IMG/VR virus record: IMGVR_UViG_2974547928_000001 | Span: 1-64,000 of that record | Length of the DNA stretch: 64,000 bases | Strand: one strand, 5' to 3' | From: a virus | Taxonomy: Duplodnaviria > Caudoviricetes | Shown here: positions 32,654 through 60,062 of the stretch, in pieces | Position numbering within the stretch: position 1 is the first letter of the stretch | Layout: the number at the start of each line of letters is the position of its first letter | Notes under the pieces: model-generated | The model's database searches: none | What the model was told of the DNA's origin: nothing | The model's input: the letters and a program-made list of their open reading frames with translations, nothing else | Made by a program: the position numbers and the translations under genes

Positions 32654-32658
32654 AAAAT

Positions 32659-32781: not shown

Positions 32782-32786
32782 TTAAA

Positions 32787-33002: not shown

Positions 33003-33020
33003 ATAAGTTACCTTAATAAT

Positions 33021-33112: not shown

Positions 33113-33119
33113 ATAAATT

Positions 33120-33197: not shown

Positions 33198-33202
33198 AAA
33201 TT

Positions 33203-33279
33203 TGGTGCCGAGGGCGGGGGTCGAACCCGCAGAACCTGCGTTTTAAGCACAGTACGTATGCCTATTCCGTCACCTCGGC
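33203..33279 (-). tRNA. tRNA-Leu(UAA), short variable region
   Basis: Loop CU-UAA-AA, CCA. Confidence 0.88.
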
Positions 33280-33536
33280 TATTTAATCTCTACTTCATTC
33301 CCCTCTGAATCCTCCCATACCTCTGGTTTACCATCAGCAAAATGAACTGAGTGTCTGCAGGGCAAGTAGATGAGTGCTCCCTTACCAGCTCCGTGATATA
33401 GTAGATCCTCTACTCGTTCCTCTCCACATACTTTGCACATGCCTTTTGGCTGCGTGAATACTTGTGGTTTAAGGCTACCATTAAATAGCTCTTCAACTAC
33501 TTTCCTAGCCCTTTCTTTCAATTCCTCATCATGCAT
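33279..33536 (-). CDS. Zinc-binding hypothetical protein
   Basis: Start MHDEE after AAGGA; CKVCG...PCRH. Confidence 0.65.
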   Translation of the reverse strand: MHDEELKERARKVVEELFNGSLKPQVFTQPKGMCKVCGEERVEDLLYHGAGKGALIYLPCRHSVHFADGKPEVWEDSEGNEVEIK

Positions 33537-33549
33537 AGTATGTTCCTTA

Positions 33550-33727
33550 TAGTTGATTAAAGCTATGTGTATATAGGCTTCACTTTGCGAGGAGATAAGC
33601 CTAACCTTTATGCTATATTGGGTCGCCAAACCCTCAGGGAGAACCACTTCCCATCTACTCACACATTTAGAGTCACATTCTTCTTGGCGGCTAGTTCTAG
33701 CGTTTATACACATACTTTAATCAACTA
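33550..33727 (-). ncRNA. Putative structured RNA closed by a ~23-bp terminal stem
   Basis: TAGTTGATTAAAG(C)TATGTGTATA / TATACACATACTTTAATCAACTA with internal hairpins. Confidence 0.55.
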
Positions 33728-33737
33728 AGTTAATTAA

Positions 33738-33874
33738 ATGTGGGTTCCCCTCTTCTCCCACTTAGTTAGTCAGACCGTTTAATGAGGCTAGCATGCCAAT
33801 TAAGGCGTCGGTTGGGACTTGCTAGTAAGTCTACCAACCCCGTTGTGCTTCATATAAGGTGACTATTCCTACAC
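33738..33874 (-). ncRNA. Putative ~135-nt structured RNA with complementary loops
   Basis: TAGTCA/TGACTA and GGTTGG-GACTT/AAGTC-CCAACC; loops CTAGCA and TGCTAG are complementary. Confidence 0.45.
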
Positions 33875-34228
33875 TCTACACGGTTGTTCTTTAAACCAAT
33901 TGATTTTTAAGCCAGTAGACTCAGTATATAATCTCTCTAGCTCTTTAAGCTCGTAGATAGGGTTTTCTGTTTCTAAATCCCATAAAAAGTCACTAAAGGA
34001 GTTCCAAGACTCAGCATCCATTACAGGAACACTTATCTCACTCCCGAACGTGCTAGAATCATGAACATCAACCCTACCACAGCAGTAATATGTTTCATAC
34101 TCTTTTCGTGTATAAAACGTTCCTGGGTTAACTGTGGACTCTACTTCTACCTCTGTAAATGGTACGTTATTATCTTCATACCACCCTACATTAACCACAC
34201 CCATCCAGTTTAAAAAGTATGTGCACAA
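33869..34228 (-). CDS. Hypothetical protein
   Basis: ORF in operon; start uncertain. Confidence 0.7.
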   Translation of the reverse strand: MCTYFLNWMGVVNVGWYEDNNVPFTEVEVESTVNPGTFYTRKEYETYYCCGRVDVHDSSTFGSEISVPVMDAESWNSFSDFLWDLETENPIYELKELERLYTESTGLKINWFKEQPCRV

Positions 34229-34461
34229 TCTAATGCCTCCAATCTATTCGATAGGTTCTTTACTTTTTCAAATTCGGAATCTGAAAGTGCGTGCCCCTCA
34301 ATAGCACATGAGGTTCTAGCATTCTCCATTATACTATCTGTATCGGGATACGCCCACACTGAATAAGTCTTGCCACTACACGTGGCGGCTCTGCCTATGA
34401 ATATGTATCCTTTATTTAGGAGAAAGCTATCCAAAGCTTTTGAACTCGATAATTTCATCAT
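34210..34461 (-). CDS. Hypothetical protein
   Basis: 83-aa ORF. Confidence 0.6.
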   Translation of the reverse strand: MMKLSSSKALDSFLLNKGYIFIGRAATCSGKTYSVWAYPDTDSIMENARTSCAIEGHALSDSEFEKVKNLSNRLEALDCAHTF

Positions 34462-34479
34462 AGCTAACTACTCTTTAAT

Positions 34480-34558
34480 TGGGGGAGATTGAGGGATTCG
34501 AACCCTCCTGGTATCCTCGGTGCAAGCGAGGTGAACACCCCAAGCATTCCCAATCCCC
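34480..34558 (-). tRNA. tRNA-Ala(UGC)
   Basis: G3-U70 pair; unusual C73; atypical D arm. Confidence 0.85.
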
Positions 34559-34564
34559 GTAAGT

Positions 34565-34641
34565 TGGTACACCCAACGGGATTCGAACCCGTGTTGCTTG
34601 CGTGAAAGGCAAGTGTCCTGACCTGGCTAGACGATAGGTGC
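34565..34641 (-). tRNA. tRNA-Glu(UUC)
   Basis: Loop CU-UUC-AC, CCA. Confidence 0.92.
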
Positions 34642-34648
34642 ATTAAAT

Positions 34649-34999
34649 TTATAGATATATGCTTACTAGATGTGCTACATCTTGCGATAGATTTTCTTCT
34701 GATTGTTTAAGATCTAAAGAGAATCTTCTAGAGATTCTAAGTATTTTCTCTGTAATATCTGAGATTGCTAATCTACGAATTTCAGCATACTGCTCTTCAT
34801 CGTACAAGTAATCAAAGTGGCTTTCTGGGAAATGTAGCTCATAAAGTTTACCACACGTAGTGCATTGACCGTTTATCCAAATTTCACAGCACCCGTCACA
34901 TCCATCTCCTTGATATAAGTAAGTATTGCCACCACAGTTTTCGCATATACACTGATGTTTTTCGTCTTTCTTAGCTCTAATTATTGCAGTAAGATTCAT
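34649..34999 (-). CDS. Cys-rich zinc-binding protein
   Basis: CENCG...CTTCG; own promoter. Confidence 0.7.
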   Translation of the reverse strand: MNLTAIIRAKKDEKHQCICENCGGNTYLYQGDGCDGCCEIWINGQCTTCGKLYELHFPESHFDYLYDEEQYAEIRRLAISDITEKILRISRRFSLDLKQSEENLSQDVAHLVSIYL

Positions 35000-35067
35000 T
35001 ACTTAATTCCTCATTTCAATTTATAGATATATTATAATTGAAATTCAGCGTTTTGGCAAGTAAATTT

Positions 35068-35550
35068 TTAAAATTTATATACGTTATCAAAGTTATGGAT
35101 AGCTACTTCCTTTACCCTTACCTCATCAAGTAGTTCTTTACACAGGTACTCTTCCTTATCTACTATAACTAGGCTTCTACGTATAGCTCTATTTGGTAGT
35201 TCAAATACTATAACGTTATCTGTTTCTAGAACCAAAGGCATTTGCGCAATATGAGCCTTGCAACGGGTTCTACAATACTCCGGAGAGTCCGACCAACCCA
35301 ATACCCACTCACCGTTAGGTGCTCGATATTTAGATACAAGAACTGAGGGCTTTGGTATGGAATAGTCACCTAGCCTTGGCTTTAACACAATATAGGCTTT
35401 ACCTATAGCCATTCTGGATGGGTCGGTTATACACTTAGCCTGTGGTACTTGGTATAAACTAATTAACTGACATCTACCAATATAATGCTCATCATGATCT
35501 GATGGACTATATACATAACCAGGTTGTAAAAAGTAATAGTAATCTTTCAT
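35068..35550 (-). CDS. Hypothetical protein
   Basis: PGYVYS..D.DEHYI...L..LY motif. Confidence 0.7.
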   Translation of the reverse strand: MKDYYYFLQPGYVYSPSDHDEHYIGRCQLISLYQVPQAKCITDPSRMAIGKAYIVLKPRLGDYSIPKPSVLVSKYRAPNGEWVLGWSDSPEYCRTRCKAHIAQMPLVLETDNVIVFELPNRAIRRSLVIVDKEEYLCKELLDEVRVKEVAIHNFDNVYKF

Positions 35551-35567
35551 AATACTGCCCTAAAAAT

Positions 35568-35643
35568 TGGCGCGGGCGGAGGGACTCGAACCCTCGCTGT
35601 ACGGGTTGGAAGCCCGACCGAATAGCCACTATCTTACGCACGC
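35568..35643 (-). tRNA. tRNA-Gly(UCC)
   Basis: GCG acceptor, loop CU-UCC-AA, CCA. Confidence 0.88.
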
Positions 35644-35918
35644 TTAAATAATTTTTTAATTCGTTCCCAAAAGGTTGGTTTTTTATTGCCAGTAGTAATA
35701 CTAGCTAATAGTTCTCTAGCTTTGGAGCAGTCAAGTCCAATATCTAACGGTTCAGGCTTTTTCTCAACCAATGTAAACTGTACCCCTTTGCGTTTAAGAT
35801 CATCTAAAGATACTGACTTATTGTCACAATCGTAGACAAACTGAATTCCTGTCTTTCTAGCTGTATAAAATTTATTTACTCTTCTTTTAACACATGGATG
35901 GTCTGTTACTAAAAACAT
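35634..35918 (-). CDS. Basic hypothetical protein; stop inside tRNA-Gly
   Basis: C-terminal amphipathic FWERIKKLF. Confidence 0.7.
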   Translation of the reverse strand: MFLVTDHPCVKRRVNKFYTARKTGIQFVYDCDNKSVSLDDLKRKGVQFTLVEKKPEPLDIGLDCSKARELLASITTGNKKPTFWERIKKLFKRA

Positions 35919-35919
35919 T

Positions 35920-36267
35920 TTATGCCCTATTTTGTATTAGTAGTACTCCGTAGTTACTAAGACTCTGCTTTGCTAACATCATCTTATCTACTGCGGAGGG
36001 GTTGTGGGAGTGAACGTACACCTCTCTTAGGTTTGGTAGTTCTCCACTATGGAGGAGCTCTTCTACAAGATTTAATACATCATTCCCTTCCTTATCTTCG
36101 CCTAGATCATTATCTAGTGAGATATGGGTAATATTATCACTACAGCCATCTAAAGCTGATAGTGCTTCGCTAAAGGTTTTCGCCCAAATAACCTTTTTAA
36201 ATACGTCTGTATCAGTAAAGTCTTTTGGGTCTCTTAAATCATCCAACCATAATAATAGTGGAAACAT
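35920..36267 (-). CDS. Cyclic-phosphate-processing receiver-domain-like protein
   Basis: LWLDDLR, ISLDNDLG, GNDVL, VHSHNP motifs. Confidence 0.75.
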   Translation of the reverse strand: MFPLLLWLDDLRDPKDFTDTDVFKKVIWAKTFSEALSALDGCSDNITHISLDNDLGEDKEGNDVLNLVEELLHSGELPNLREVYVHSHNPSAVDKMMLAKQSLSNYGVLLIQNRA

Positions 36268-36284
36268 ACTGTTACCTCAGTAAT

Positions 36285-36361
36285 TGGTAGCGAGTGCAGG
36301 AATCGAACCTACCTAAGCTGGCTTATGAGACCAGAGAGTTCCCCAGAACTTCTAACTCGCA
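36285..36361 (-). tRNA. tRNA-Met(CAU), probably initiator
   Basis: Unpaired U1xU72, CCA. Confidence 0.82.
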
Positions 36362-36367
36362 ATTAAT

Positions 36368-36452
36368 TGGCGGGTAGTGCAGGATTCGAACCTGCGTTGT
36401 TCTTTCGAACATGGATTAACAGTCCACCGCCAAACCGCTTGGCTAACTACCC
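36368..36452 (-). tRNA. tRNA-Asn(GUU) with long variable arm
   Basis: Loop CU-GUU-AA, G73; extra arm UGUUC-GAAA-GAACA. Confidence 0.88.
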
Positions 36453-36794
36453 TATAATCTGTATTAGAGGAACGTGTCCTTCAAAATAATAATCTTTTTG
36501 CGCTGTCATAACTTCTACACGATTGGCGTAGACTAGGAATGCGTCTTTATCCCCGATAAGCTCTGGACTCCATTGGTTCTCTAGACCATAACATGAGCAG
36601 TGACTACCGTGAACTTCATAATAAAGACCTGTTAAATTATCTTTAAAATATACTTCTGCGTACCCCTCATACTGTGGTTGGTTATATACTGCGTATATAA
36701 TAGTGATGTTTTCAAGAGAGCCCACTGGTAACTCAAATTGATCTTCTACATCACGAACATCTTTAAAATCACCTGCAAATATATTATCTAACAT
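36447..36794 (-). CDS. Conserved phage hypothetical protein; stop inside tRNA-Asn
   Basis: YEG.A...YEVHGSHCSCYGLENQW.PE motif. Confidence 0.8.
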   Translation of the reverse strand: MLDNIFAGDFKDVRDVEDQFELPVGSLENITIIYAVYNQPQYEGYAEVYFKDNLTGLYYEVHGSHCSCYGLENQWSPELIGDKDAFLVYANRVEVMTAQKDYYFEGHVPLIQIIG

Positions 36795-36817
36795 TGCTAG
36801 CTCCTAAATAAATTAAA

Positions 36818-36893
36818 TGGTACTTCGAACTGGGATCGAACCAGTGACCTCTCAGTTATCAGCCGAGTGCTCTACCTACTGAGCTATCGAAGT
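36818..36893 (-). tRNA. tRNA-Ile(GAU)
   Basis: Cloverleaf, CCA. Confidence 0.92.
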
Positions 36894-37061
36894 ATAAAAG
36901 CAACTTTGGGTGTTTCAGGGTTACTCGTTTGCACACACTACTATTAACCCTTGTTCGTATTAATGAGTGTGCCTAAGAGCGTACTCGTTGCTTTATGTAC
37001 TAGTAATACTTAGAGTATATGAATTTTGAAAGCCCTGCCGACTATATAGTATTACTAAATT

Positions 37062-37139
37062 TGGCATCGTAGAAGGGACTTGAACCCTCAGAGACCTACC
37101 TTGAAAGGGTAGTGACTTTACCAATTTGTCCACTACGAT
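37062..37139 (-). tRNA. Second tRNA-Glu(UUC)
   Basis: Loop CU-UUC-AA, G73, CCA. Confidence 0.88.
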
Positions 37140-37216
37140 ATAATACATTGTCGGGGAGTGCACAGAATGAAACTATTACTTCATTGATTGTGGACTTTAT
37201 TCCCCGACTTACAAGT

Positions 37217-37301
37217 TGGTGCAGGATCGTGGACTCGAACCACGGAACCCCGAGGGGTGGAGATTTACAGTCTCCTGTCATTGCCGCTAGACTAATCCTG
37301 C
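37217..37301 (-). tRNA. tRNA-Tyr(GUA)
   Basis: Long variable arm, CCA. Confidence 0.92.
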
Positions 37302-37306
37302 ATAAA

Positions 37307-37565
37307 AATAAATAAAGAATCTACTTTTGCGACTTACAAGTTGCCCGTAGTAGTAACCAGCTACTAAGATAGTATAGTTTACCTGATCGCCCCCTGAATA
37401 GTTACCTTTCGGTTAGGAATTCCCTCTGCCTTAATTTACAGAGAACCATAGCTGGTGTGGAATTGGTTTGTCCTATTACTATTAGGCTCTCCCGCAGTGC
37501 TCTTGTAAACACCCGTAACTTCGCAGTGACTTTTACTATCTCCAAAAGTAGATTTTTTATTTATT
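37307..37565 (-). ncRNA. Putative pseudoknotted RNA closed by a 23-bp terminal stem
   Basis: Arms 37307-37329 and 37543-37565 (1 mismatch); crossing helices; GAAA tetraloop; promoter 37590-37618. Confidence 0.6.
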
Positions 37566-37637
37566 CTTCCCTTAAACTTTATAATAGATATTATATTATA
37601 AATTTGAGCGTTTAGCAAGTAAAATTATAATATTTTA

Positions 37638-37714
37638 TGGTACGCCCTACAGGATTCGAACCTGTGACCCACAGCTTAGAAGGCTGTTGCTCTATCCAAC
37701 TGAGCTAAGGGCGC
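37638..37714 (-). tRNA. tRNA-Arg(UCU)
   Basis: argU-like cloverleaf, CCA. Confidence 0.94.
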
Positions 37715-46508: not shown

Positions 46509-48869
46509 TTAAATAGAACAGCCACCACTAGAACAGCCTTGTTGGTGTACTGAACCGCCATTATCATCATCAAACCAGGCATAGTAAATAGACTTCAACC
46601 CATACTTATATGCCAATAGTACGTTTTTAAGCACTGCTGCCATTGGTATTTTGCCATCTGGATAATCCGAGAATCTGTAATATTCGTTGAAGCTCATAGC
46701 CTGATTGAAGAACTTCTGCGCTACCGCATTAAACTTAACCCATTCTTCCTTAGGAACGTTGAACGCAGTAATATAGTTCTTACTAATAGTAATGTCAGTG
46801 GCTCCTGGAGCTACACATTTAACTTTACTAGTACCACTACCTTTAACAGTTACTAAAGCCCTAATAGGGTCTAGGCTGTTAGTGGATCCTGTAACTACTG
46901 AGCTGGACTCTCCAGGCATTTGAGCAGATAATACACTATTGCGCATACCATACTTAAGAATATCTGAGCGTAACTCTTCCCAGTCTAATTCTAAGCCTAC
47001 TGATACTAATTCGTCTACAGTTTTCTTATAAGTATCTATTACTAAAACACCCTTAGCAGGTAAAGTATATTTGAACCAATCTGCTGCACCGCGTTCTTTT
47101 GCCAGACGTACTGAAGCTTTGTGTAAGAAGTAAGCATGCTTCTCCATTTCTCTATGTAGCCAGTTTCTTGCTTCCTCACCTACATATTGAAGTCCTAGCT
47201 CTGCCATGGCACCAGCTGCGTTCATAACACCAATACCCACGTTTCTACGTTTCTTAGCAGTTATAGCCATTTGAGGGAACGCGTAGTCTTGAATATCAAT
47301 GATAGTGTCCACAAACTTAAGCACTAGGTAACAAACCGATTCCCACTCTTCTAGAGTTCTGACTTTGCCTAAAGTGATTCCTGCTAAGTTACATAAGGAT
47401 ACTTCACCCTGCTCTCCAGGCTTAATATCCTCATTAGTGTTATACAGATCCATGATATGCTCAAACCAATAGGTTGGTTGGTTAATTTCAACACAAAGGT
47501 TAGTCATGGTGATAGGTTCGTCAAAGTTAGAATGAGCATTTGTATTATCTACAAACTGTAAATAAACTCTACCTACTTCCATACGAATTTTTAATGCATG
47601 ATTTAATACTTCCATAGCACTAATAGTAGGACATAAAGGAACTGAGTGTCCATCTCGTGTTCTTCTGGTCTTAGTAGATAGACGCTTTTCTGCTGCTTCA
47701 TATGCTTTTACAAACGTACTTAGATCCTTACTATAGAATGCCTCGTATACTTCTGGTGCATATAGATAGGACATTAATGTTATATCTTGTTTCTTCAGTG
47801 CCCTTTCTAGTAAAAACCCATTTACTTGAAGGGTATAGTCAATCTTATCTAGTCGACTCTCTGCATCCGAACGTTGAGACTTGCCTGACAAGATGGACAT
47901 TACTTCCGGGTCAAACATGGCAATATTAGTATTCATTGAACCGCCACGTGATTGTTGCGTATTACTAGCACAACTAGCAAATGCATGACGTAAATAAGGT
48001 ATCTTGCCCATATGGTAGAATGATCCATTGCGAACAGGATCTGCTACAGATCTAGTAGTTAGCTTATGCCCAATACCTGCTCTAGCTGCTACCATCTTAA
48101 ATACAACGTGCTCTGAAGCATCTAGGGAATCTAATGTATCACCTGCCTCTACTAAACAGCAAGATGCAAAACCGTTGTCACCAGAACGTAATCCGATCAT
48201 AGGTGGTGTTGGTACGTTAATCTTGAATGTGCTGAATGCGTCGTACAGTGCAATGATTTGTTCAATAGACCAGTCATCTGTCTGACCCATTGCCATTGCC
48301 ATGCCCATATACATAAACTGTGGGGTTTCGTAGATTTCTTCTAACTCTACATTACGTCGTGCGTACTTATCAAAGAATTGTTTAAGTCCACCGTATGTAA
48401 AGTCTTCATCTCTGGAATGATTAATAGCTTCTTCTAACTGATCCCACTCGCTATCAGTAAACCATGTAATCTTCTGCCACGCTCCTGCTTCTGCTAGATA
48501 ATCAGCCCACTGGCGGAGCCCTGGTGGTTGGAATCTATCTGACTGGAATACCTGCTTACGCATTTTAGCAAGTAATAACTGTTTTGCAACATCATCATAT
48601 TCAGGCTCTGATACAATCAAACTATCTGCTGCACTGATTAGCATATCCTGTAGTTCATCAGTATAGATATACTCTCGTGCTTCTGTTCTTAGTACCATTT
48701 TTACTAGTCTAGAATAGAGATCCTCTTTTCCTTTACATGCCCAAGATGCCCATCCCAGCAATTTACTACCGTCAAATTCTTCGATAGAGCCATCACGCTT
48801 TCTAACGTTTTTAATATTATATAGTTGTGTTTGAGGTTGTTCAGGCTTTAAAAATCTTGTTAAGTCCAT
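46509..48869 (-). CDS. nrdA: Ribonucleotide reductase class Ia alpha subunit
   Basis: ATP-cone (VRKRDG), ASCC, NLCVEI, C-terminal CSSGGC. Confidence 0.96.
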   Translation of the reverse strand: MDLTRFLKPEQPQTQLYNIKNVRKRDGSIEEFDGSKLLGWASWACKGKEDLYSRLVKMVLRTEAREYIYTDELQDMLISAADSLIVSEPEYDDVAKQLLLAKMRKQVFQSDRFQPPGLRQWADYLAEAGAWQKITWFTDSEWDQLEEAINHSRDEDFTYGGLKQFFDKYARRNVELEEIYETPQFMYMGMAMAMGQTDDWSIEQIIALYDAFSTFKINVPTPPMIGLRSGDNGFASCCLVEAGDTLDSLDASEHVVFKMVAARAGIGHKLTTRSVADPVRNGSFYHMGKIPYLRHAFASCASNTQQSRGGSMNTNIAMFDPEVMSILSGKSQRSDAESRLDKIDYTLQVNGFLLERALKKQDITLMSYLYAPEVYEAFYSKDLSTFVKAYEAAEKRLSTKTRRTRDGHSVPLCPTISAMEVLNHALKIRMEVGRVYLQFVDNTNAHSNFDEPITMTNLCVEINQPTYWFEHIMDLYNTNEDIKPGEQGEVSLCNLAGITLGKVRTLEEWESVCYLVLKFVDTIIDIQDYAFPQMAITAKKRRNVGIGVMNAAGAMAELGLQYVGEEARNWLHREMEKHAYFLHKASVRLAKERGAADWFKYTLPAKGVLVIDTYKKTVDELVSVGLELDWEELRSDILKYGMRNSVLSAQMPGESSSVVTGSTNSLDPIRALVTVKGSGTSKVKCVAPGATDITISKNYITAFNVPKEEWVKFNAVAQKFFNQAMSFNEYYRFSDYPDGKIPMAAVLKNVLLAYKYGLKSIYYAWFDDDNGGSVHQQGCSSGGCSI

Positions 48870-49864: not shown

Positions 49865-50008
49865 GCATTACCTCTCCGTTTAAGGTCTCGAATCCATAAA
49901 TTAGGATTGAGGTTCTCCCATTTACTTAATATTATATAACATTTACATATAAATTGCAAGTACAATTTTTAAAACTACCTGAAAGATCGAATCCTTTCTT
50001 TTATTATA

Positions 50009-50036
50009 ACGCGCGTACGCGCATACGTGCGTATAT
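50009..50036. repeat. 28-nt alternating purine-pyrimidine tract between divergent promoters
   Basis: ACGCGCGTACGCGCATACGTGCGTATAT. Confidence 0.8.
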
Positions 50037-50164
50037 CATATAATTTTCAGCTTGTCAAATAAAATTTTGTTAATATTTTGTTATCGCTGGAAGAATAAAT
50101 AAATTTTAGTTGACATAGACGCACAGATTTGGTATAATGTATCAATATATTGGAGGAAAAAATA

Positions 50165-52030
50165 ATGACTGAAAAACTAAAGAGTATGATGAACAACTCT
50201 AGGGATATAATCTCTAATACAGCTGAGGATGATCTACGTTTTAATAACGCTAATAAACCGTCTGAACGTTTAGCAACCCAACGTGACATGTTAGCTGGCG
50301 AGGTATGTAAAGCTTTACTAGAAGAAATGTTACCAGAGGATATTCTAGAGGCGCATAATTCTGGTGATATTCATTTCCATGATGCAGATTACTCAGCTAT
50401 GGGGTATACTAACTGCTGTCTAGTAGATTTAGAGGGTATGTTGAAAGAGGGTATGCGTGTTGGTAATGCTGACATTACAACCCCTAAGTCACTAGATACT
50501 GCGGTAGCTGTAACAGCGCAGATCTTAGCTCAGGTGTCAAGCCATCAGTACGGAGGAACATCTATTGATAGAATTGACGAGATCTATGCCCCCTATGTAA
50601 AAGCATCGTATAATAAAGCACTGTCATTCGCAATGAAGTGGTTAAAAGGTGATGTAGCTAAATCTGCTGTAATGGCGACTGAGATGGTAGAAAAAGAAGT
50701 TAAAGATGCTATGCAGAGTTTAGAGTATGAGATTAATACCCTATTTAATTCTAATGGTCAGAGCCCCTTTGTTACTCTAGGGTTTGGTCTAGGTACCTCT
50801 TGGGAAGCTAGAATGATCCAGAAAGCTATCTTAACCACTAGAATGACTGGACTAGGTAAAGGTGGGCATACTGCTATATTTCCTAAGCTGGTATATGTAC
50901 TTAAACCTGGACTTAATATGAAGCCTGGTGACCCTAACTACGATATTAAGAAGTTAGCAATCAAGTGTACCAGTGAACGTATGTATCCTGATTATATATC
51001 TTATGATAAGGTTGTTGAAGTTACTGGGGATTACAAAGTAAGTATGGGATGTAGAAGTTTCCTATCCGCTAATAAAGATGGTGAAACGGCTGGTCGTAAC
51101 AACTTAGGGGTAGTTAGTATAAACTTGCCTAGAATTGCTATTGAATCAGAAGGCAATATTGATACTTTCTTCGATATTCTAGAGGAAAGAGTTGAATTAG
51201 CAATTAACGCTTGCTACTGGCGAATGGATCACCTGAAAAAGGTAAGAGCGGAAGCTGCTCCTATCCTATATATGTCAGGTGCGTTTGGAATGAGACTGAA
51301 CGCAAAGGATTTGGTATTTGACCATTTCAAGGATCGTGCGTCTATCTCTGTAGGATATATTGGTTGTCATGAAATGTTACAGGCTATGTTTGGTAAAGAT
51401 GTCGATACCATGAGTTATGAGTGTATTGAGTTTGTAAAGCAAGTTCTTTTATATATAAGGGAAGCATGTGATATTGAAAAGGCTAATACTGGTATTGGCT
51501 TTAGTTTGTATGCAACCCCTAGTGAATCACTATGTAATCGTTTCAACCAATTAGATGCTAACAAGTTCCCTGAGTATTCTTGGCTATTCGAGAAAGGTTA
51601 CTATACTAACTCACATCATTTAGATGTTGCTAGAAAGGTGGCTCCTGATGTCAAATTCGATTATGAATCTAACTTTACTTCTATTGCTAGCGGTGGTTGC
51701 ATTGCTTATGTAGAATTACCTGATATGAAGAGATTCTTGGATGCTCTAGAATGGGTAATTGATTATGCTGCTAGTAAAGTGCACTACTTCGGCATTAACA
51801 CCCCCGTTGATACCTGTAGCGAATGTGGGTTTATTGGCGAAGCCATAGCCAGTGAGAATGGGTTTGAATGCCCATCCTGTGGTAACCATGATACAAATAC
51901 CCTTGAAATTACTCGTAGAGTGTGTGGGTACTTGGGTAACCCTGGTGCTAGACCGTTTAACCCAGGTAAGCAGCATGAAGTTATGGGTAGAGTTAAGCAC
52001 GCAGACGTGCGTAGTGGTAAAATAAAGTAA
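50165..52030 (+). CDS. nrdD: Anaerobic ribonucleoside-triphosphate reductase
   Basis: NCC, MGCRS, YYTNS, CxxC..CxxC, RRVCGYLG glycyl-radical loop; ATG at 50165. Confidence 0.96.
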   Translation: MTEKLKSMMNNSRDIISNTAEDDLRFNNANKPSERLATQRDMLAGEVCKALLEEMLPEDILEAHNSGDIHFHDADYSAMGYTNCCLVDLEGMLKEGMRVGNADITTPKSLDTAVAVTAQILAQVSSHQYGGTSIDRIDEIYAPYVKASYNKALSFAMKWLKGDVAKSAVMATEMVEKEVKDAMQSLEYEINTLFNSNGQSPFVTLGFGLGTSWEARMIQKAILTTRMTGLGKGGHTAIFPKLVYVLKPGLNMKPGDPNYDIKKLAIKCTSERMYPDYISYDKVVEVTGDYKVSMGCRSFLSANKDGETAGRNNLGVVSINLPRIAIESEGNIDTFFDILEERVELAINACYWRMDHLKKVRAEAAPILYMSGAFGMRLNAKDLVFDHFKDRASISVGYIGCHEMLQAMFGKDVDTMSYECIEFVKQVLLYIREACDIEKANTGIGFSLYATPSESLCNRFNQLDANKFPEYSWLFEKGYYTNSHHLDVARKVAPDVKFDYESNFTSIASGGCIAYVELPDMKRFLDALEWVIDYAASKVHYFGINTPVDTCSECGFIGEAIASENGFECPSCGNHDTNTLEITRRVCGYLGNPGARPFNPGKQHEVMGRVKHADVRSGKIK

Positions 52031-52101
52031 AATTTTATTTGACTAGTAGTGGGAATATTGCTATAATATTCCCATATTGTTAATTAATAGAGGAAATTAA
52101 T

Positions 52102-52740
52102 ATGTACTTAGTAAAGATTATTGATGGTGTGCAGATGGGTTATGTTGCTGATGGCAACTGGATTGATGCAGGGATTGGTAAAGTAGATCTGCTTTACGTG
52201 CTCAAATGCATCCATAAAGAATACCCAATGCTATTTACCCCTAGAGTATCTAAGACTTTAACAGAAAGTATGTTTGTGGCGGACGGTATTCTAGCAAATA
52301 TGCTGGTAGAGATGATATTAACTCCAGGGTTTAGGATTATCAACTCGTTAATTTTTGCATGTACTGGTCATATACTTGCATACGATGAGGCATCTATTGA
52401 CTTTTCCTTACGTAGTATTGTTGAATGCGACGGTAGTGAGGTACTAAAAGATGAAAACCTCTTAAACATTGTTGGTCGCGGGTTACTAGCGGGTCTTACT
52501 AATGAAGATTGCCCAGCAATGCGACGTTTTAAAAATGAAGTGCTTTTGAATGCCCTTGAGTATGTATCAGAGACTTACGGGGAAGATTCTGATCTATATA
52601 AAGAAATGGTAGGTATTTGCATCAGTAGCGCAAATTCTAGTGCATTCCACGTTGAACTTAAAGACTCAACATTGGACGAGATTCTTGGGTTTGCTATTGA
52701 TAATGGTCTAATCGGTACCTTACGTGTTGTACGCCGTTAG
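52102..52740 (+). CDS. Hypothetical protein
   Basis: 212 aa, own promoter, GAGG RBS. Confidence 0.75.
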   Translation: MYLVKIIDGVQMGYVADGNWIDAGIGKVDLLYVLKCIHKEYPMLFTPRVSKTLTESMFVADGILANMLVEMILTPGFRIINSLIFACTGHILAYDEASIDFSLRSIVECDGSEVLKDENLLNIVGRGLLAGLTNEDCPAMRRFKNEVLLNALEYVSETYGEDSDLYKEMVGICISSANSSAFHVELKDSTLDEILGFAIDNGLIGTLRVVRR

Positions 52741-52799
52741 TCGATGCGATTTTATAAAGTATTCTTGACAAATTTTTAAATATTTGATATAATATTTAT

Positions 52800-53490
52800 A
52801 TCGAGTGAGGGGAGGGATCCCCGATCTCTAAGGGTATTCCTAGAGTGCCCTTAGAGATACTCGATAGAGTACGGTTCGTTGGGTCTCTTATTATATTGAG
52901 GTAGATTTCTGCCTTAGTCGGAGACTTTTGTCTCCGATGACTATGAACCTGTAACATTATTCGTATTATGACAATTCAAAGCTAACAGAGTAGGTGCGGT
53001 GTGATCCCGCGTGCGGTACATATGGCATTCGATGCCTTAATCAGAGATGTATGCCCTACTGCCTCGAGCCTGAAAAAAGTCGGATATTGAACTTAGTAAC
53101 TACGGCGCTTAATGCCTCCTCGGAGGAAAGGGGTCCCGAGCCACGTATGCCTTAGCGGGTTATCTGATATCGTGGGGCGGTTATTATGATTCAACTGGCT
53201 GTTAGCATTCGTAACCTTGCCGCATTAGGGTTTTGAAGTAATACAATGAATGGTGATATAAGTTTATAGCTTCGGAGTAATTCTCTATTTTGAGAAAACG
53301 TCTGTACTAGCAGTGAACATAATGAAACTTAAAGAAACGATGCCAAGATGGGGCTTACGTGAACCACTCTCCCTAGCACGATGACGTAAGAGGTAATTAT
53401 GGAATCTGTTTATTACTAACTAGAAGTTGCAGGAGTAAGATAAGGGGAACCCGAGCACTTGTGCCACCGGAAGCCTTAGCCGTGAAAAAT
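52800..53490 (+). ncRNA. Putative large (~690 nt) structured ncRNA upstream of the origin-binding protein gene
   Basis: TTGACA-17-TATAAT at 52765-52793; no ORF; nested helices with many G-U pairs on the + strand. Confidence 0.65.
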
Positions 53491-53560
53491 GCAATTGACA
53501 AGTGGTAGTTCTATATAGTATAATTGTATCTAAAATTTATAACAAAGGAGTTATAGTAGC

Positions 53561-56338
53561 ATGTTCACTATTTTAAAGGGACATGAGGGCTATCGTCTGA
53601 ATAAAGCCACTGGTGAATATGAAAAGGATACAGATTTAGTATTCTGTAAACGATTCAATAAAGAGCATCCAGAGGGCAAGCCAGCATCTATGGCTATTCA
53701 GTATAATGTTGTTGATGAAGTATATCCAGAAGACCTAGTCGAGATGGAGGCACTTTTACACACCCTCACTAGTAATCCGTACTTATTAGCCGTTAGAGGT
53801 AAATGTACTGGTTCTAAGAATGCTATTTATAGACGTAGAGTAAACTTTGATTTAACAGAGCGAAGCCATGTAGTAGCTATTGACGTGGATGACTTCCCCT
53901 TGCCCGAATATATTGATCGTTTTGATTTAGTAGGTCAAGCAAAGTTTGCTATAAAGATGCTTAATAGTATAAGTGAAGATATGTTTCCATTAGATGCAGG
54001 TTTTATTGTGCATGCATCATCATCTGCTGGTATAAAGCCAGGGATTCGTATTCACTTAATTCTAGAAAGTAATATTCCAGTTACACAAGGTCAGTTGAAA
54101 TTTATATTTTCGACTGTCAACGAATCGTCACGCCAAAAATATGGTTCCGACCTTATTGACTTAGCGTACTATTCAGCAGTACAGCCACATTACTTCGCTG
54201 ATCCTATCTTTGAGGACGGCATGGTAGATCCTTTCCTAGAGCGTAGAATTCCAAGATTGGTGCGTGTTGAGGGTTCGAAGATTAATCTCCCACATAATGC
54301 ACCAGACTATGAGTCAACTCGTGGTGAATTTAAAGAGGAATTCTTGTCATTATTAGATTCTATTAAAGGAAAAAAATCTACATCAGAAAAAATTGAAGAT
54401 ACTATCAGAGAGCTTGAAGAAGCAGAAGATGGAGTATATCTTCGTATTATTCCTAAACTCTACCACAGAGCATTAGAAGAGGGTGTTGATCTAGCTTGGC
54501 TAGAGAGAGAAATTCGCCCATATCTTGAGGAGTACGTTAGTACTAAAGACAACCGACGTTCGGTTCAAGATTACTTTAATAATGGTAGACGTCAAGCATT
54601 AAAAGCATTCGTTAACAATTCAGCTAGAAAAATCCCTGAAGGTAACCTAAAGGGAGTGCCTTTGTACGCCTTGAAAACTGATAGCAACGAGGCGGAAAAG
54701 TACTTAAAACTTCGGGAAATCCCACCACCTAATAGTATGACGTTTGTTAAAGCATCTTTAGGTACAGGTAAGACAACTGCAATTATTAATTGGCTTAATA
54801 AAGGATTAGTTAAAGGCGGGTTTCTAGCAGTAACGAACACACGCTCACTAGTAGCATCCAACGCAGCTAAATTCGGTGCTGGTCAATATTGTAAGACAGC
54901 GGACATGTTGAACTTTAAACGTGGTGGTATAGATAGAATGTCAACTACTATTCACTCTATACATAAGTTCGCAACATTCACCGATAGAGTTAACTTCGTG
55001 TTTATTGATGAAGCAGACGCTGTTATGAATGACCTATTATTTGCACCAGTTGTAAAGCAACGTAGGGCATGTATCGAAACATTACGAGAGTTATTATTAG
55101 CTGCGGATTACGTTGTACTGTCAGATGGAGATATTAGCGCAGAAACGATTGAGGCTTATGGTGCCCTAATTGGCTTCGCCAAACCTATTTATTATTACAA
55201 TCACCATAGAAGAATGCTAGAGGGTGCTCAAGTATACGAATTTCCTGACGAGAAATCTATATGGACAGCATTGCAGACATCTTTAGAGATGGGTGAGAAA
55301 TCTATTCTAGTATCAGACTCCGGTCCCGCCCAGTTAGCCGAAAAGGGCATAGCCCTACGAGCGGCAACAGGGGCGAATGTTAAGGAAGTCCACTCCTCAT
55401 CTACAGAGGATCCTGATATTAGAAGAATTCTTGACTTAACGAATCAAGAGTTAATTGACCAAGGAATTGATGCTTTATTATGTAGTCCATCGGTAACTAG
55501 TGGTGTTGACTTTAACTACTTCGATAATGTATTTGTAATAACTAATACAGCTAATCATTCCCCAAATATGAGAATGCAGGCTATTAGACGTGATCGTGGA
55601 GCAATGTCTATCTATATGTATACAAACCCTGGGGTTGCAGGATTCGTTGCGGGTTCCGAACAGTATAATGCTGACGAGGGATGGATTGATAGAAGTCAAC
55701 AACTATACGCTAGACGTAGAGAAATAGAGAGTAAGAATTATCAATCAACATTAAGATTTTATTTATTAGATCAAGGTGCTACTATTGATATCTTCACTGA
55801 AAGTTGGGGAGGTATAGAGAGTGCTAGTACTGAGTACTTTAACCAACGTGTTGATGCTATTCTAGCGTCTACTCCCGATTACACTCCATTGCGTCATAAT
55901 GATGCTTACTCTGAAAAAATGTTGTTACTTCAATACTTCAAGTTAGATAATATTAATGAACTAACTAGAGAGCTAGTAGAGCAGTACGTTACAGAGAAAC
56001 CACATGAAAGAGCAGGGTTCTTCCATAAGGTTCAGGATATATTTTGGGAACCAATAACTAGATGCTCAGAAAAGACAATCTTCCCATTCGTAGAAGCTAT
56101 GAAATCTCATAAACGTGAATTCTTTATTAGAACAGGTAATAGTGCTTCTCCTAAGTATGCTAGAATGTACCTAACAATGATGGGTATTGGTAAAGATATG
56201 GATACTACTAATATCGTAGACTGGTACAGAACCTACTGCAGGATAGAGGGCATTCAGTTACCTGTGGCATTTATGACTATCGAAGAGAAGCAGAAGTACT
56301 ACGAGGGTATTGCTGATTTGGAGCTTGGGGATGAGTAG
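53561..56338 (+). CDS. obp: Replication origin-binding protein (primase-like N-terminus plus UL9-like SF2 helicase)
   Basis: 925 aa; DVD...HASSS...H; KASLGTGKTT; FIDEAD; SPSVTSGVDF; QAIRR. Confidence 0.9.
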   Translation: MFTILKGHEGYRLNKATGEYEKDTDLVFCKRFNKEHPEGKPASMAIQYNVVDEVYPEDLVEMEALLHTLTSNPYLLAVRGKCTGSKNAIYRRRVNFDLTERSHVVAIDVDDFPLPEYIDRFDLVGQAKFAIKMLNSISEDMFPLDAGFIVHASSSAGIKPGIRIHLILESNIPVTQGQLKFIFSTVNESSRQKYGSDLIDLAYYSAVQPHYFADPIFEDGMVDPFLERRIPRLVRVEGSKINLPHNAPDYESTRGEFKEEFLSLLDSIKGKKSTSEKIEDTIRELEEAEDGVYLRIIPKLYHRALEEGVDLAWLEREIRPYLEEYVSTKDNRRSVQDYFNNGRRQALKAFVNNSARKIPEGNLKGVPLYALKTDSNEAEKYLKLREIPPPNSMTFVKASLGTGKTTAIINWLNKGLVKGGFLAVTNTRSLVASNAAKFGAGQYCKTADMLNFKRGGIDRMSTTIHSIHKFATFTDRVNFVFIDEADAVMNDLLFAPVVKQRRACIETLRELLLAADYVVLSDGDISAETIEAYGALIGFAKPIYYYNHHRRMLEGAQVYEFPDEKSIWTALQTSLEMGEKSILVSDSGPAQLAEKGIALRAATGANVKEVHSSSTEDPDIRRILDLTNQELIDQGIDALLCSPSVTSGVDFNYFDNVFVITNTANHSPNMRMQAIRRDRGAMSIYMYTNPGVAGFVAGSEQYNADEGWIDRSQQLYARRREIESKNYQSTLRFYLLDQGATIDIFTESWGGIESASTEYFNQRVDAILASTPDYTPLRHNDAYSEKMLLLQYFKLDNINELTRELVEQYVTEKPHERAGFFHKVQDIFWEPITRCSEKTIFPFVEAMKSHKREFFIRTGNSASPKYARMYLTMMGIGKDMDTTNIVDWYRTYCRIEGIQLPVAFMTIEEKQKYYEGIADLELGDE

Positions 56339-56611: not shown

Positions 56612-56956
56612 ATGATATTTGCAGGGTTAGCTAGACAATGTACTCACTATTGTGGCAGACCCAACTATTATGCAGGAGTAGGGAAGGATTTATCAGTGTT
56701 AGGTAATCCTTTTCATATGGAGCATTCTCTAGATAGAGATAGAGTGTGTGACGAATATGAGAACTACTTCTTTAGATCATTAGAACTAGATCCTGAGTTT
56801 GCTACAGCAGTAGATACTATTATAGAAGATTATAGAAACTCTAATGGAAAGCATATAGTTCTTGGGTGTTTCTGCAAACCAAAGAAAAGGTGCCACTGCG
56901 ATACAATAGTGAACTATGTTAAATCCGTTGTTGATGGAGAGTCAGTTAATGGCTAG
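56612..56956 (+). CDS. DUF4326-like protein
   Basis: YCGR...S.LGNPF...LGCFCKP..CHCD. Confidence 0.8.
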   Translation: MIFAGLARQCTHYCGRPNYYAGVGKDLSVLGNPFHMEHSLDRDRVCDEYENYFFRSLELDPEFATAVDTIIEDYRNSNGKHIVLGCFCKPKKRCHCDTIVNYVKSVVDGESVNG

Positions 56957-57668
56957 ATCAAGAAAACACGCACATATGATTCCAGATTCTCTGTTTAAAG
57001 AAGCTATTGAATGGCTAGAGAATGGTGGTACAAAAGTAGGTGCTAGAGATATTTTAGGAAGATCAGGTATAAAAGTTAGCTCAAATCCTCAAATGGAAAA
57101 ACTAATTGAGGAATGGCAGGCTAACAAAGAACTTGACAAACGCATGCGTGCACAGAAACGTGGTAAGCCAATTGATGGCATAGAGGCTACAGATATTATT
57201 GAGCGCAGTCTTAACGGTCAATCATTAGCTGAGATCGCAAGCGCAGTATATAGGTCTTCTAGTAAGGTTAAAGAGTTTTTGGAGAGCGTAGGAGCAGACC
57301 TGAGATCGGCTCAATCGGCTCCGCCAGATAAGCCCTTTGAACTTAATCCACCACTGGTTCCAGAGGCAGCAATGTCTTTTGAGTTTGAGGTTGGTGAAAA
57401 GGTATGGGTATCAGCCTACCAATGTTTCGGGGAAATAATGAAGAAGATTAATGATGATGTTTATCGTGTCTATCTTCTAGACGAAGGAACACAACAATAC
57501 GTTCACCAAAACGCGTGGAATTTAGGTAGCTTAAAGCATCTACATAAGTTTGGCATTGACCAAGCAAAAGTAGGATTTAAGTGGACAAAAGAAGATGCGT
57601 ACCCTCTTCTTAGCTCAGCATTAGAGAAAGCTAAGAAGCAAGCTAATGATGATAAGAAAAGGAAGTAG
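56949..57668 (+). CDS. D2: D2 DNA-binding protein
   Basis: T5 synteny; AIEWLENGGTK motif, HTH-like segment. Confidence 0.8.
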   Translation: MARSRKHAHMIPDSLFKEAIEWLENGGTKVGARDILGRSGIKVSSNPQMEKLIEEWQANKELDKRMRAQKRGKPIDGIEATDIIERSLNGQSLAEIASAVYRSSSKVKEFLESVGADLRSAQSAPPDKPFELNPPLVPEAAMSFEFEVGEKVWVSAYQCFGEIMKKINDDVYRVYLLDEGTQQYVHQNAWNLGSLKHLHKFGIDQAKVGFKWTKEDAYPLLSSALEKAKKQANDDKKRK

Positions 57669-57670
57669 TT

Positions 57671-57862
57671 ATGTTAGATTTAGTAGTTGGCTTGATACTA
57701 TCTATAGTAGCATTTATATCTTTTCAGGTAGCTGACGATTCTAGGCTAGAAGTAATTAATGGAAGGGGTACAGGGATAAAAGTACTCCTTTATTTCATAT
57801 TAGGATGTGCTTGTACAGGTGTAAGCGCTTACATACTATTCTCACACTTAGGGGTATTATAA
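57671..57862 (+). CDS. Small membrane protein
   Basis: Two hydrophobic helices. Confidence 0.6.
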   Translation: MLDLVVGLILSIVAFISFQVADDSRLEVINGRGTGIKVLLYFILGCACTGVSAYILFSHLGVL

Positions 57863-57929
57863 TGAAATTCTTAATATTAGGTATAATGGCTGTTGTAGTA
57901 GCAATAGCTTTCTGGATAGTGGGGAGAGT

Positions 57930-58160
57930 ATGATTAAGAAAGTAAGCCTACTATTTGCTGTTAAATTAGCAGAAAAGAACAATAGCTGTGTAGAGGTAGC
58001 CAGACCAGATTTGCAAGACACAGAACTAAAATCATTTATTACTATTTACCCGGATGGTACATTTACAGAAACAGTAATGAACTACTCAGATCTAGAAACT
58101 ACACCACGCGAATCAATTTATGAGTTAGACTTACGTTCACAAGACTGGGTTTTAATTTAA
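57930..58160 (+). CDS. Hypothetical protein
   Basis: GGAG RBS. Confidence 0.65.
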   Translation: MIKKVSLLFAVKLAEKNNSCVEVARPDLQDTELKSFITIYPDGTFTETVMNYSDLETTPRESIYELDLRSQDWVLI

Positions 58161-59030: not shown

Positions 59031-59349
59031 GGGAGAATTTCTTCAGGATATTAGTGGAAATACTGACCTAATTGATCATATTCTCTGGGAAAAGTACGGT
59101 GAACAAGTTAGGTTCACCGTATCCGAGTTTTTAGGCAATACGTATTTCGGAATTAGATACTGGTATCTAGATCTAGAAGATGTGTGGAGACCAACCTCTA
59201 GAGGGTTCAGTATACCTTTTACGTTAGATTCCACAACCAGATTATTCAAAGCATTAGCCACTTGTCTTAGTAAGGCAGAACTATTACAAGAGGTATTAGA
59301 GCACGTTGATAACATTGAGATAAAGGAAGTAGAAAAAGCCGAGGATTAA
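59011..59349 (+). CDS. PC4-like ssDNA-binding/transcriptional regulator
   Basis: VRFTVSEF.G..Y.GIRYWY...W.P...G.SIP; start uncertain. Confidence 0.75.
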   Translation: MSQLNSEGEFLQDISGNTDLIDHILWEKYGEQVRFTVSEFLGNTYFGIRYWYLDLEDVWRPTSRGFSIPFTLDSTTRLFKALATCLSKAELLQEVLEHVDNIEIKEVEKAED

Positions 59350-59429
59350 GCATCTTCGGCTTTTATTTTACTTGACATTTACTAAGTATTTTGATATAAT
59401 TATTTTATAAATAAATTAGGAGTAATTAT

Positions 59430-60062
59430 ATGAAAGTATACACAGGTATAGGGAGTCGCAAAGCTCCTATACATAAGCAAAGAGAAGCACGATATCTAGC
59501 CTACATACTAAATGTTATTCTAGGATTAAAGCTTCGTAGTGGCAGGGCTGAAGGTATGGATTATGCTTTTCAGCAAGGTGCTAGCACAGGAGGCAGAGTC
59601 CCATATTCGGCTTTACCTTACAAAGACTGTGCTGAGATATTTCTTCCTAATATTAACTTTGGAAAAGAATTTGGCGATCAAGAGCTTTGCAAGCCCGTTC
59701 CTAAGTATGGTTTATTAAGAGAGAAACTAGAAGCACTTGTATACGTTCATCATAAGTATGGGGATACTTTAAAGGGCTTTGCTCTAGACGCTCACTGTAG
59801 AAACATGCAACAAGTTCTAGGATATAACTTAGATGATCTCACGGATTTTGTAGTTTATTGGGCACCGGAGGATAAGTTTGGGATGGCTAAAGGTGGTACA
59901 GCCACAGCAGTTTCAGTAGCTATGTCTTATGATATCCCAGTATTCAATATGTTATATGACGATTGGGCTGACAATTTATTCCATACTTTAATCTATCACG
60001 GAGTGCCAGAAGCAGAAACTGCATTTCAAATGTTTAAAGCAGGGAAAGGAGGAGAATATTAA
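59430..60062 (+). CDS. DprA/SLOG-family nucleotide-binding protein
   Basis: YTGIGSR, LRSG.AEG.D.AF, RN..QVLG, GGTA. Confidence 0.78.
   Translation: MKVYTGIGSRKAPIHKQREARYLAYILNVILGLKLRSGRAEGMDYAFQQGASTGGRVPYSALPYKDCAEIFLPNINFGKEFGDQELCKPVPKYGLLREKLEALVYVHHKYGDTLKGFALDAHCRNMQQVLGYNLDDLTDFVVYWAPEDKFGMAKGGTATAVSVAMSYDIPVFNMLYDDWADNLFHTLIYHGVPEAETAFQMFKAGKGGEY

Follow-up and report, generated by a model that had tools for sequence, protein, structure and literature searches.

The DNA considered here is a 64,000-nucleotide (nt) stretch of a phage genome (positions 1 to 64,000 of IMG/VR record IMGVR_UViG_2974547928_000001), called the window below, and the subject is a noncoding interval located immediately upstream of obp, the gene for an origin-binding-type superfamily 2 (SF2) helicase homologous to D2 of phage T5. 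With a probability of about 85–90%, this interval encodes an RNA of ~460 nt, driven by a promoter termed P1 and folded into three domains, which is the Novosibvirus form of an undescribed RNA of enterobacterial T5-like phages. In the phage collection, the interval 52741-53560 (820 base pairs, bp) matched eight Proteus phage records (Novosibvirus, Demerecviridae) over its full length at 98.2-98.7% identity, and the source phage is a T5-like siphovirus of Proteus; beyond those eight, the only other match in that collection was a 57-nt promoter-like stretch of one Fusobacterium phage. The interval holds no open reading frame (ORF) above 53 amino acids (aa) on either strand, and GC content is 0.45-0.46 within the element versus 0.38-0.40 in the flanks. 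No peptide was conserved between the window region and seven related regions, for which tblastn returned four trivial matches of 7-16 aa. The folded element is single-copy and located ~51% along the 104,410-bp record.

P1 matches the sigma-70 consensus TTGACA-17-TATAAT at 12 of 12 positions and carries a TG extension in addition. Transcription is predicted to start near 52800, which coincides with the first helix (52800-52806), as was claimed in an earlier note made from the letters of this DNA. T5 has an annotated promoter of the same position and type (T5P32, and an unnamed promoter in the second T5 record), while the best promoter-like sites on the - strand of the region score 9/12, the level of shuffled sequence. 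The folding energy of the core 52800-53260 was -161.3 kcal/mol on the + strand versus -118.7 kcal/mol on the - strand, with z scores of -3.99 and -2.27 (30 shuffles each). Over 52800-53490, the + strand reached -215.6 kcal/mol (z -2.95), a value equalled by 0 of 20 shuffles, and the - strand -167.7 kcal/mol (z -0.68), equalled by 4 of 20, which upholds the strand asymmetry that had been taken as a pointer to RNA. The segment 53261-53560 was no more stable than its shuffles on either strand (z +0.83 for + and +0.29 for -). Because the excess stability sits in 52800-53260 only, the element is a folded core of ~460 nt followed by a spacer, and not a 690-nt RNA; of the ~690-nt molecule proposed earlier, the core stood and the more variable 3' part did not.

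Pair probabilities were obtained by partition-function folding of 52800-53262 alone. In the 5'-terminal domain they averaged 0.95 for the closing helix ATCGAGT/ACTCGAT and reached 0.99 for the GGGGA/TCCCC hairpin and 0.98 for the 16-bp hairpin at 52824-52858, two U-G pairs included; the GGTTCGT/ATGAACC helix of the second domain had 0.97. Within the third domain, the long-range pairing CATTATTC/GAATGGTG was present in the minimum free energy (MFE) structure, GTATTA/TAATAC had a probability of 0.59, and the inner helix formed by GCTAACAG (52981-52988) and CTGTTAGC (53199-53206) had 0.79. Nearly all of the helices named in the earlier note were recovered, most of them with high probability; TTCAAA/TTTGAA had a probability of 0.26 and CCACG/CGTGG one of 0.08, and AGTAGG/CCTACT is absent from the MFE structure.

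Related loci were collected through the protein. A tblastn search with Obp matched 908 phage records, and in every phage record opened an ORF-free gap, of about 600-860 nt, precedes obp while the upstream neighbours vary. The gap measures 617 bp in T5 (AY587007, AY543070), where it carries an annotated early promoter and no other feature, 598 bp in KpGranit, 837 bp in Vibrio phage Hades (L005 3164-4000) and 636 bp in Vibrio phage PG07 (L007 3236-3871); the equivalent stretch of Vibrio phage D233 contains hypothetical coding sequences (CDS) of 30-55 aa only. Scanning with Obp yielded 47 loci in viruses and 8 in metagenomes, and none in genome_contigs. When the DNA upstream of obp was compared among the viral loci and the phage records opened, it formed 14 sequence clusters.

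Covariation across T5-like phages, which had been proposed as a check, was found in a T5-group alignment of 15 sequences (T5-type, Epseptimavirus-type, KpGranit and two uncultivated lineages). RNAalifold predicted 61 pairs including long-range helices, with 96.6% of the cells canonical and 29 pairs showing double changes. Shuffling of the 3' partners left 14.0 +/- 2.1 such pairs, none of 500 shuffles reaching 29, and partners shifted in a slide control paired in 36-47% of cells. These controls overstate independence, as the sequences are related; the changes nonetheless come from at least five lineages, and they include G-U intermediates. On this comparative evidence, the fold of the T5-group RNA is real. 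A long 5'-terminal hairpin recurs at the corresponding position in the T5-type, Epseptimavirus-type and Klebsiella consensus folds and in single-sequence folds of PR1, PSTCR5, Eps_L009, L030 and L031, and is missing from the single-sequence MFE of T5 and Kp.

The window RNA was connected to this group by its place and promoter, by one hairpin and by its architecture. The 8-mer CTTAGCGG occurs in 7 of 18 cluster representatives and once in the 64-kb window with both strands counted (53151-53158; 1.18 expected). In seven lineages it belongs to a hairpin of common design, termed the CUUAGCGG hairpin, in which an inner stem NNCU/GGNN with loop UAGC is stacked directly on an outer stem 5-9 bp long, with an asymmetric internal loop of 5-9 nt on the 3' side. 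The outer stems differ in all seven, namely CCACGUAU in the window, AUAGAAUC in T5, GCAAAUCU in the Epseptimavirus type, CACCU in PR1, GUGCGGGU in L030, AUACGGG in L031 and CCACAUGG in KpGranit, while the design stays the same. A covariance model (R1) built from nine sequences, with the window left out, gave a single match in the whole 64-kb window, located at 53137-53181 (13.3 bits, E 0.14); within the syntenic gap alone and with filters off, E was 0.0018. R1 found the site in 12 of 12 enterobacterial loci, of which nine are its training set and three are near-identical to those. Furthermore, a long closing helix appeared in the single-sequence MFE of seven of the eight RNAs folded (six of seven lineages), although its sequences are unrelated. 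It spans 301 nt in the window, 312 in PR1 and PSTCR5, 331 in T5, 332 in the Epseptimavirus type, 325 in L030 and 319 in L031, and the hairpin motif stands at 0.63-0.65 of the span in all seven (0.65 in the window); the Klebsiella-phage MFE does not have this geometry. Shuffles of the window RNA met the closing-helix geometry in 2 of 120 cases, by limits set after the data had been seen.

The two RNAs are alike in locus, orientation, a strong early promoter at the 5' end and the lack of a terminator before obp, as well as in layout, a 5' hairpin being followed by a small second domain and then by a closed domain of 300-330 nt with the CUUAGCGG hairpin. They are unlike in that the window RNA begins with a three-way junction and the T5 group with a plain 5' hairpin, and in that the window adds a spacer of ~300 nt, which carries a 12/12 promoter and repeats the motif region in diverged form. 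Because the invariant 5' 26-mer block of the T5 group, GATACGGAACAGTTNGGCTGCCCCAT, has no match in the window with up to two mismatches to either half, the window RNA is, by sequence comparison, a divergent relative of the T5-group RNA and not a typical member. It carries ACGGTTCGTTGGG, which resembles ACGGAACAGTTAGG of the T5 group and is nearer to CCGGTTCGTGGGG of the Providencia phages, and the Providencia phages bridge both groups in patches (CCGGTTCGTGGGG versus ACGGTTCGTTGGG; CTCGAGCCCACC..GCTTAGCGG versus CCCGAGCCACG..GCCTTAGCGG). The comparison links the window RNA with apparent counterparts in T5, Epseptimavirus, Sugarlandvirus, Priunavirus and two uncultivated T5-like lineages. The claim of a multi-domain, strand-specific and promoter-driven noncoding RNA is sustained by the fold statistics, the conservation, the lack of a conserved peptide and the architecture or hairpin common to six other lineages.

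Within Novosibvirus, 7 of the 24 sites variable among eight genomes fall in 52800-53250 and 17 in 53251-53560. Two of the core changes keep their pairs, 52911 G>A in domain 2 (G-U to A-U) and 53241 A>G in domain 3 (A-U to G-U); the variant at 53228 lies in a pair formed by the window alone, and the remaining core variants are unpaired in the MFE structure, including 52814, the sole variant of domain 1, which is in a loop. When the window was aligned with RP7 and PM135 over 12.8 kb, the core, covered by two 300-nt bins with 1 and 5 variable columns, was the most conserved stretch of this neighbourhood, most gene bins having 30-58. The low-diversity block runs on into obp, with 10-25 variable columns per bin to ~54840, and because of this extension a recently exchanged segment may account for part of the near-invariance. 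Carried further, the same observation would make the interval a functionless leftover spacer that owes its fold and conservation to chance and a recent recombination sweep, and the relatives of this version are indeed only those of ~98% identity. This is very improbable given the sharp step at the gap start, where variable columns drop from 31 in the preceding bin to 1, the fold z score near -4, the strong covariation of the T5 group, and an architecture and hairpin common to lineages without detectable sequence likeness. More distant Novosibvirus-like relatives were sought both with the RNA and with the 212-aa protein encoded upstream: the phage collection gave the eight Proteus phages only, IMG/VR added one relative (L008), none of the eight metagenome obp loci was close, and genome_contigs gave none. 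The relatives of the window version are too alike (~98%) for covariation to be measurable within the lineage.

Evidence for transcription comes from T5 only, in the form of assembled contigs that carry no strand, ends or level. The T5 stretch was present in 20 of 24 listed runs, which represent nine studies, and 13 of the 20 were recorded as RNA. In the RNA immunoprecipitation sequencing (RIP-seq) run X10, the upstream contig stops at 1933, just past the annotated terminator, and is followed by adapter sequence. A separate contig of 529 nt (2046-2574) holds the leader and the first 74 nt of obp, the start being predicted at ~2010 and obp beginning at 2501; it agrees with transcription that starts downstream of the promoter and extends into obp. 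Run X1 yielded one long contig over the whole region, and run X24 (raw reads) contained nothing on the stretch. The upstream-operon contig of X10 is deep (108.8), and its end just past the annotated rho-independent terminator (1908-1933 of the T5 locus L028) fits a real RNA 3' end.

Folded + strand DNA is indistinguishable from RNA by sequence alone. A rival reading is an element that acts at the DNA level only, whether as an origin, as a signal for single-strand initiation or as a region bound by protein, with an incidental transcript. Near-total conservation even in predicted loops would agree with it, as would a - strand core that also beats chance (z -2.27), the adjoining initiator gene and a second copy of the motif region that abuts the downstream promoter P2. 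It is nevertheless quite unlikely: the energy asymmetry towards the transcribed strand is large, G-U pairs recur, all enterobacterial lineages have a consensus promoter placed precisely at the first helix, the T5-group covariation passes through G-U intermediates, and the region is transcribed in T5.

The sole terminator-like site in 51500-54500 is located at 52049-52075, upstream of the element, and no intrinsic terminator stands between the RNA and obp. P2 has no counterpart in T5, Epseptimavirus-type or Klebsiella-phage relatives, in which sites scoring at least 10/12 were scanned for, and L030 has a 10/12 site at -97. The earlier statement that the RNA is not just a leader holds insofar as P2 is a 12/12 match at 53495, and is weakened by the missing terminator, the finding of P2 at 12/12 in this lineage only and the T5 contig that enters obp. 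A structured 5' leader that controls obp (D2) post-transcriptionally, through translation, stability or elongation and maybe via D2 or another factor, would account for this continuity, for the annotated T5 promoter being the only one before obp, for the contig that runs from leader to obp in an RNA library and for an RNA-obp adjacency that stays constant while the upstream genes differ. In addition, the T5-group RNAalifold structure pairs a 5' segment with the obp Shine-Dalgarno sequence (columns 89-95/550-556, 97% paired); one of these seven pairs shows a double change, and the pairing was not recovered in sub-group folds. We regard a leader as unlikely in view of the 12/12 P2 and the unstructured, faster-evolving spacer of ~300 nt between core and obp, and of a distance from domain 3 to obp that ranges from ~70 to ~300 nt. 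To our knowledge, known rep leaders use far less structure than 460 nt.

An RNA that acts in trans, perhaps cut from the 5' end of the obp transcript and serving to sequester a host protein or defence system (decoy or sponge) or forming an assembly of RNA alone, would resemble the orphan large RNAs in size and complexity. The 16-bp hairpin and the 5' junction could be read as processing sites, and the stretch is present in several RIP-seq libraries; because the contigs of these libraries also include neighbouring genes, they show no enrichment. With no terminator or defined 3' end found, no extended complementarity, and so no antisense target, elsewhere in the window (the best was a 14-nt same-sense match, E 0.09) and a strict adjacency to obp that would go unexplained, a role in trans also seems improbable. 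An excess of GCCTTA and CTTAG hints at a repeated binding motif for such an RNA, and GCCTTA could be a candidate motif of this kind. GCCTTA occurs at 52911, 53034, 53149 and 53473; these four + strand copies within 691 nt compare with an expectation of 0.17 (Poisson P 3e-5), and the - strand has none. CTTAG has five copies against 0.92 expected in the same 691 nt, and in the equivalent RNAs of six other lineages it is somewhat over-represented (12 in sum versus 3.4 expected).

We tentatively place the function in cis, at odds somewhat short of even, as that of a transcript of the replication-origin/initiator module. A cis role is favoured by an adjacency to obp that persists while the upstream neighbours change, by the lack of a terminator and by the retention of the ORF-free gap in a gene-dense family. 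The obp product matches Pfam Herpes_ori_bp (E 1.8e-6) and, over its full length, PHROG 3712 'replication origin binding', and is 65.5% identical to that of T5 obp, which is taken as gene D2 because of its size and UL9 similarity. Host RNA polymerase very probably starts at P1 near 52800 and transcribes rightward, the first ~460 nt folding into the 5' three-way junction, the two-hairpin domain and a ~300-nt domain closed by a long-range helix, with the CUUAGCGG hairpin ~65% of the way along it. The RNA lies between the upstream early-operon terminator and obp/D2 and, because no terminator follows, would be made as the 5' part of the obp transcript. The ORF-free region would then be at or beside the phage origin, and strong early transcription through it would, together with the folded RNA, help the origin fire, possible routes being DNA opening, an RNA-DNA hybrid or primer left behind, or a platform for the D2 helicase beside its own gene. 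That the RNA is itself the working part of an RNA-dependent T5-like origin, recognised by D2 or hybridised to DNA and starting the first replication round, is conceivable though doubtful; if true, a lytic phage would thereby provide an origin RNA of a new class, and the T5 origin would be located. The central position of the element in the record and its distance of ~3 kb from the cumulative GC-skew minimum also count towards a link with replication, and the first T5 origin is reportedly near the genome centre.

Several results weigh against this account, beside the low-diversity block that continues into obp. The homology case is composed of synteny, architecture and one hairpin, which is its weak point. 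Blastn (word size 7) of the window against other genera returned the promoter only or nothing; the nhmmer profile of the T5 group matched just 29 nt (52783-52811, the -10 hexamer and the first transcribed bases; E 0.83), and the Priunavirus profile found nothing in the window region. In none of the 12 other loci (Vibrio-type, L036, L048, L055) did R1 detect the hairpin, and the gaps of Hades and PG07 have a strong promoter before obp without an R1-detected CUUAGCGG hairpin. In the R1 re-alignment (A5), register errors limited pairing to 73% of the cells; because A5 pairs just 60% of the cells of the outer stem, the 3' loop differing in length between lineages, this stem was judged from per-sequence constrained folds. 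A second model, R2, made from five sequences in the T5 register, scored mainly on primary sequence and placed the Epseptimavirus hairpins in wrong alignment; it was dropped while R1 was kept. The outer stem CCACG/CGTGG of the window has a thermodynamic pair probability of only 0.08 and is backed by the comparison between lineages. As to an origin, the GC-skew minimum (~50 kb) coincides with a switch of gene orientation, and since gene orientation explains the minimum equally well, no origin is needed for it; no iterons are present, all nine direct-repeat families in 52600-53700 being two-copy only. As to a separate RNA, the leader contig of X10 has a depth of 18.1, close to that of the obp pieces (24 and 8.6), depth being a poor measure, and a single contig of run X5 crosses both promoter and terminator, so that read-through or DNA carry-over occurs in such libraries.

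Table 1. Coordinates of the RNA element, its promoters and the adjacent genes in the window.
Feature	Position	Strand	Description
nrdD	50150-52030		upstream of the element
212-aa gene	52102-52740		no family; upstream of the element
Promoter P1	52765-52793	+	-35 TTGACA at 52765-52770; TG-extended -10 TATAAT at 52788-52793
Domain 1, 5'-terminal three-way junction	52800-52865	+	closing helix 52800-52806/52859-52865; hairpins 52809-52822 and 52824-52858
Domain 2	52873-52949	+	GGTTCGT/ATGAACC helix around hairpins 52897-52916 and 52917-52938; 5' side bears ACGGTTCGTTGGG
Domain 3, multi-helix, ~300 nt	52950-53260	+	closed by CATTATTC-GTATTAT / GTAATAC-GAATGGTG, in MFE and centroid
Conserved hairpin	53141-53175	+	outer stem CCACG-TAT / ATA-(T)-CGTGG; inner stem GCCT/GGGT, loop TAGC; invariant CTTAGCGG at 53151-53158; 3' asymmetric internal loop TATCTG
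Spacer between core and obp	53261-53494	+	not stabler than shuffles, more variable; diverged second copy at 53442-53483
Small hairpin TTCTC-TATTTT-GAGAA	53281-53296	+	just 3' of domain 3; in MFE; pyrimidine-rich 5' arm, purine-rich 3' arm
Promoter P2	53495-53524	+	12/12 sigma-70 match; directly upstream of obp
obp	53561-56338	+	925-aa origin-binding-type SF2 helicase, T5 D2 homologue (Pfam, PHROG and T5 comparison)

In Rfam 15, all 21 matches of the window were transfer RNAs (tRNAs) located elsewhere, the best weak match at the element reached 22.7 bits against a threshold of 48.6, and neither the T5 nor the Vibrio Hades counterpart matched a family. No published description or name of the RNA was found, though the supplements of a 2023 viral short-RNA catalogue (PMC10690425) might list fragments. 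The suggestion of a new large class of noncoding RNA, for which an Rfam search had been named as one check, agrees with both results. The RNA would add a large structured family, absent from Rfam 15 and from the annotations checked, to the few known from phages.

Among known systems, ColE1 RNA II is likewise a promoter-driven RNA of several hundred nt with multiple stem-loops, located upstream of replication functions, whose fold decides its function. No homology to it was found, with no Rfam match at E<=10, and the best - strand promoter sites here score 9/12; the present element comes from a lytic phage that encodes a UL9-like initiator itself, and it has no known RNA-DNA hybrid or RNase H site. 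The T7 primary origin and the T4 R-loop origins oriF and oriG use a transcript or transcription to start DNA synthesis, and they too have a strong promoter, set in gene-poor DNA close to replication genes. These promoter-dependent origins are not known for a large conserved fold, which is the main conserved feature here. The pseudoknot of IncB/IncI-alpha repZ and the control region of R1 repA resemble the element in placing an RNA structure upstream of an initiator gene on the same transcript. Such plasmid rep leaders are much shorter and act through the ribosome-binding site with an antisense RNA, whereas the core described here lies 70-300 nt from the start codon and an antisense partner was not seen. 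With GOLLD, ROOL, OLE and HEARO, the RNA has in common a length of several hundred nt, many helices, long-range closing helices, a phage-borne location and an orphan function. It differs from them in having no Rfam 15 match, in being fixed before one gene and in being confined so far to enterobacterial Demerecviridae. Large ornate RNAs are the subject of a cryo-electron microscopy preprint (10.1101/2024.12.08.627333). A resemblance of GGAGGAAAGGGGTCCCGAGCC followed by GCCTTAGCGG to the conserved P4 region of bacterial RNase P RNA was rejected, as GGAAAG is not conserved in the Providencia phages or T5 and no RNase P model matched at E<=10.

T5 D2 is described as a bipolar SF2 helicase, and DNA synthesis is absent in its amber mutants (PMC3632103); the same source terms T5 replication and its initiation 'poorly understood'. 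T5 is a classic model phage, and the RNA would offer a concrete candidate for its origin or for the control of initiation before an essential helicase gene. T5-like phages are widely used against Salmonella, Klebsiella, Proteus and E. coli, so that a cis element needed for replication would be of practical use to phage engineering.

Further observations concern the element and its counterparts. The stretch 53127-53156 that leads into the CUUAGCGG hairpin (AAAGGGGTCCCGAGC...CGTATGCCTTAGC) has a diverged copy ~315 nt downstream, at 53442-53483 (repeat families D4 and D6); it reads CTTAGCCG, does not form the same hairpin and ends 12 nt before the -35 box of P2. Small hairpins analogous to that at 53281-53296 were read by eye in T5 (CTATTC..GAATAG), L030 (CTTTCC..GGAAAG) and PR1 (TTCTTT..AAAGAA). 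The gap of Vibrio phage PG07 folds well on both strands (z -3.5 and -2.8), and those of Hades and L045 fold weakly. A pairing of the invariant T5 AACAGTT with AACTGTT is lost in the Klebsiella-phage and L030 sequences while the long-range helix covaries, and was set aside as coincidence. In three T5-group phages (L012, L032 and L041), unrelated sequence replaces the promoter and the 5' hairpin (A2 columns 25-90), after which the common sequence resumes, and a copy of the usual promoter block stands ~100 nt further upstream, a pattern that suggests mosaic exchange of the RNA's 5' end.

The RP7 record annotates three hypothetical - strand CDS of 34-53 aa within the RNA region (L001 6056-6217, 6353-6454 and 6657-6761). 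They are absent from every other Novosibvirus record, seven of the eight Proteus records having no annotated feature under the interval, and are probably spurious; a coding role was rejected, no peptide being conserved between lineages. In the wider window, the genes flip from the - to the + strand at 49865-50149, a divergent promoter region 3 kb upstream of the RNA and in the same 2-kb bin as the GC-skew minimum. In the 12.8-kb alignment, the bins 46741-47340, 56641-56940, 57541-58140 and 59341-59640 have 170-365 variable or gapped columns per 300, against the typical 30-58, and probably represent gene cassettes that were replaced or inserted. On the - strand, 27547-37714 is occupied by a tRNA gene cluster, with 23 genes predicted by ARAGORN and 21 of them also by Rfam, as is typical of T5-like phages.

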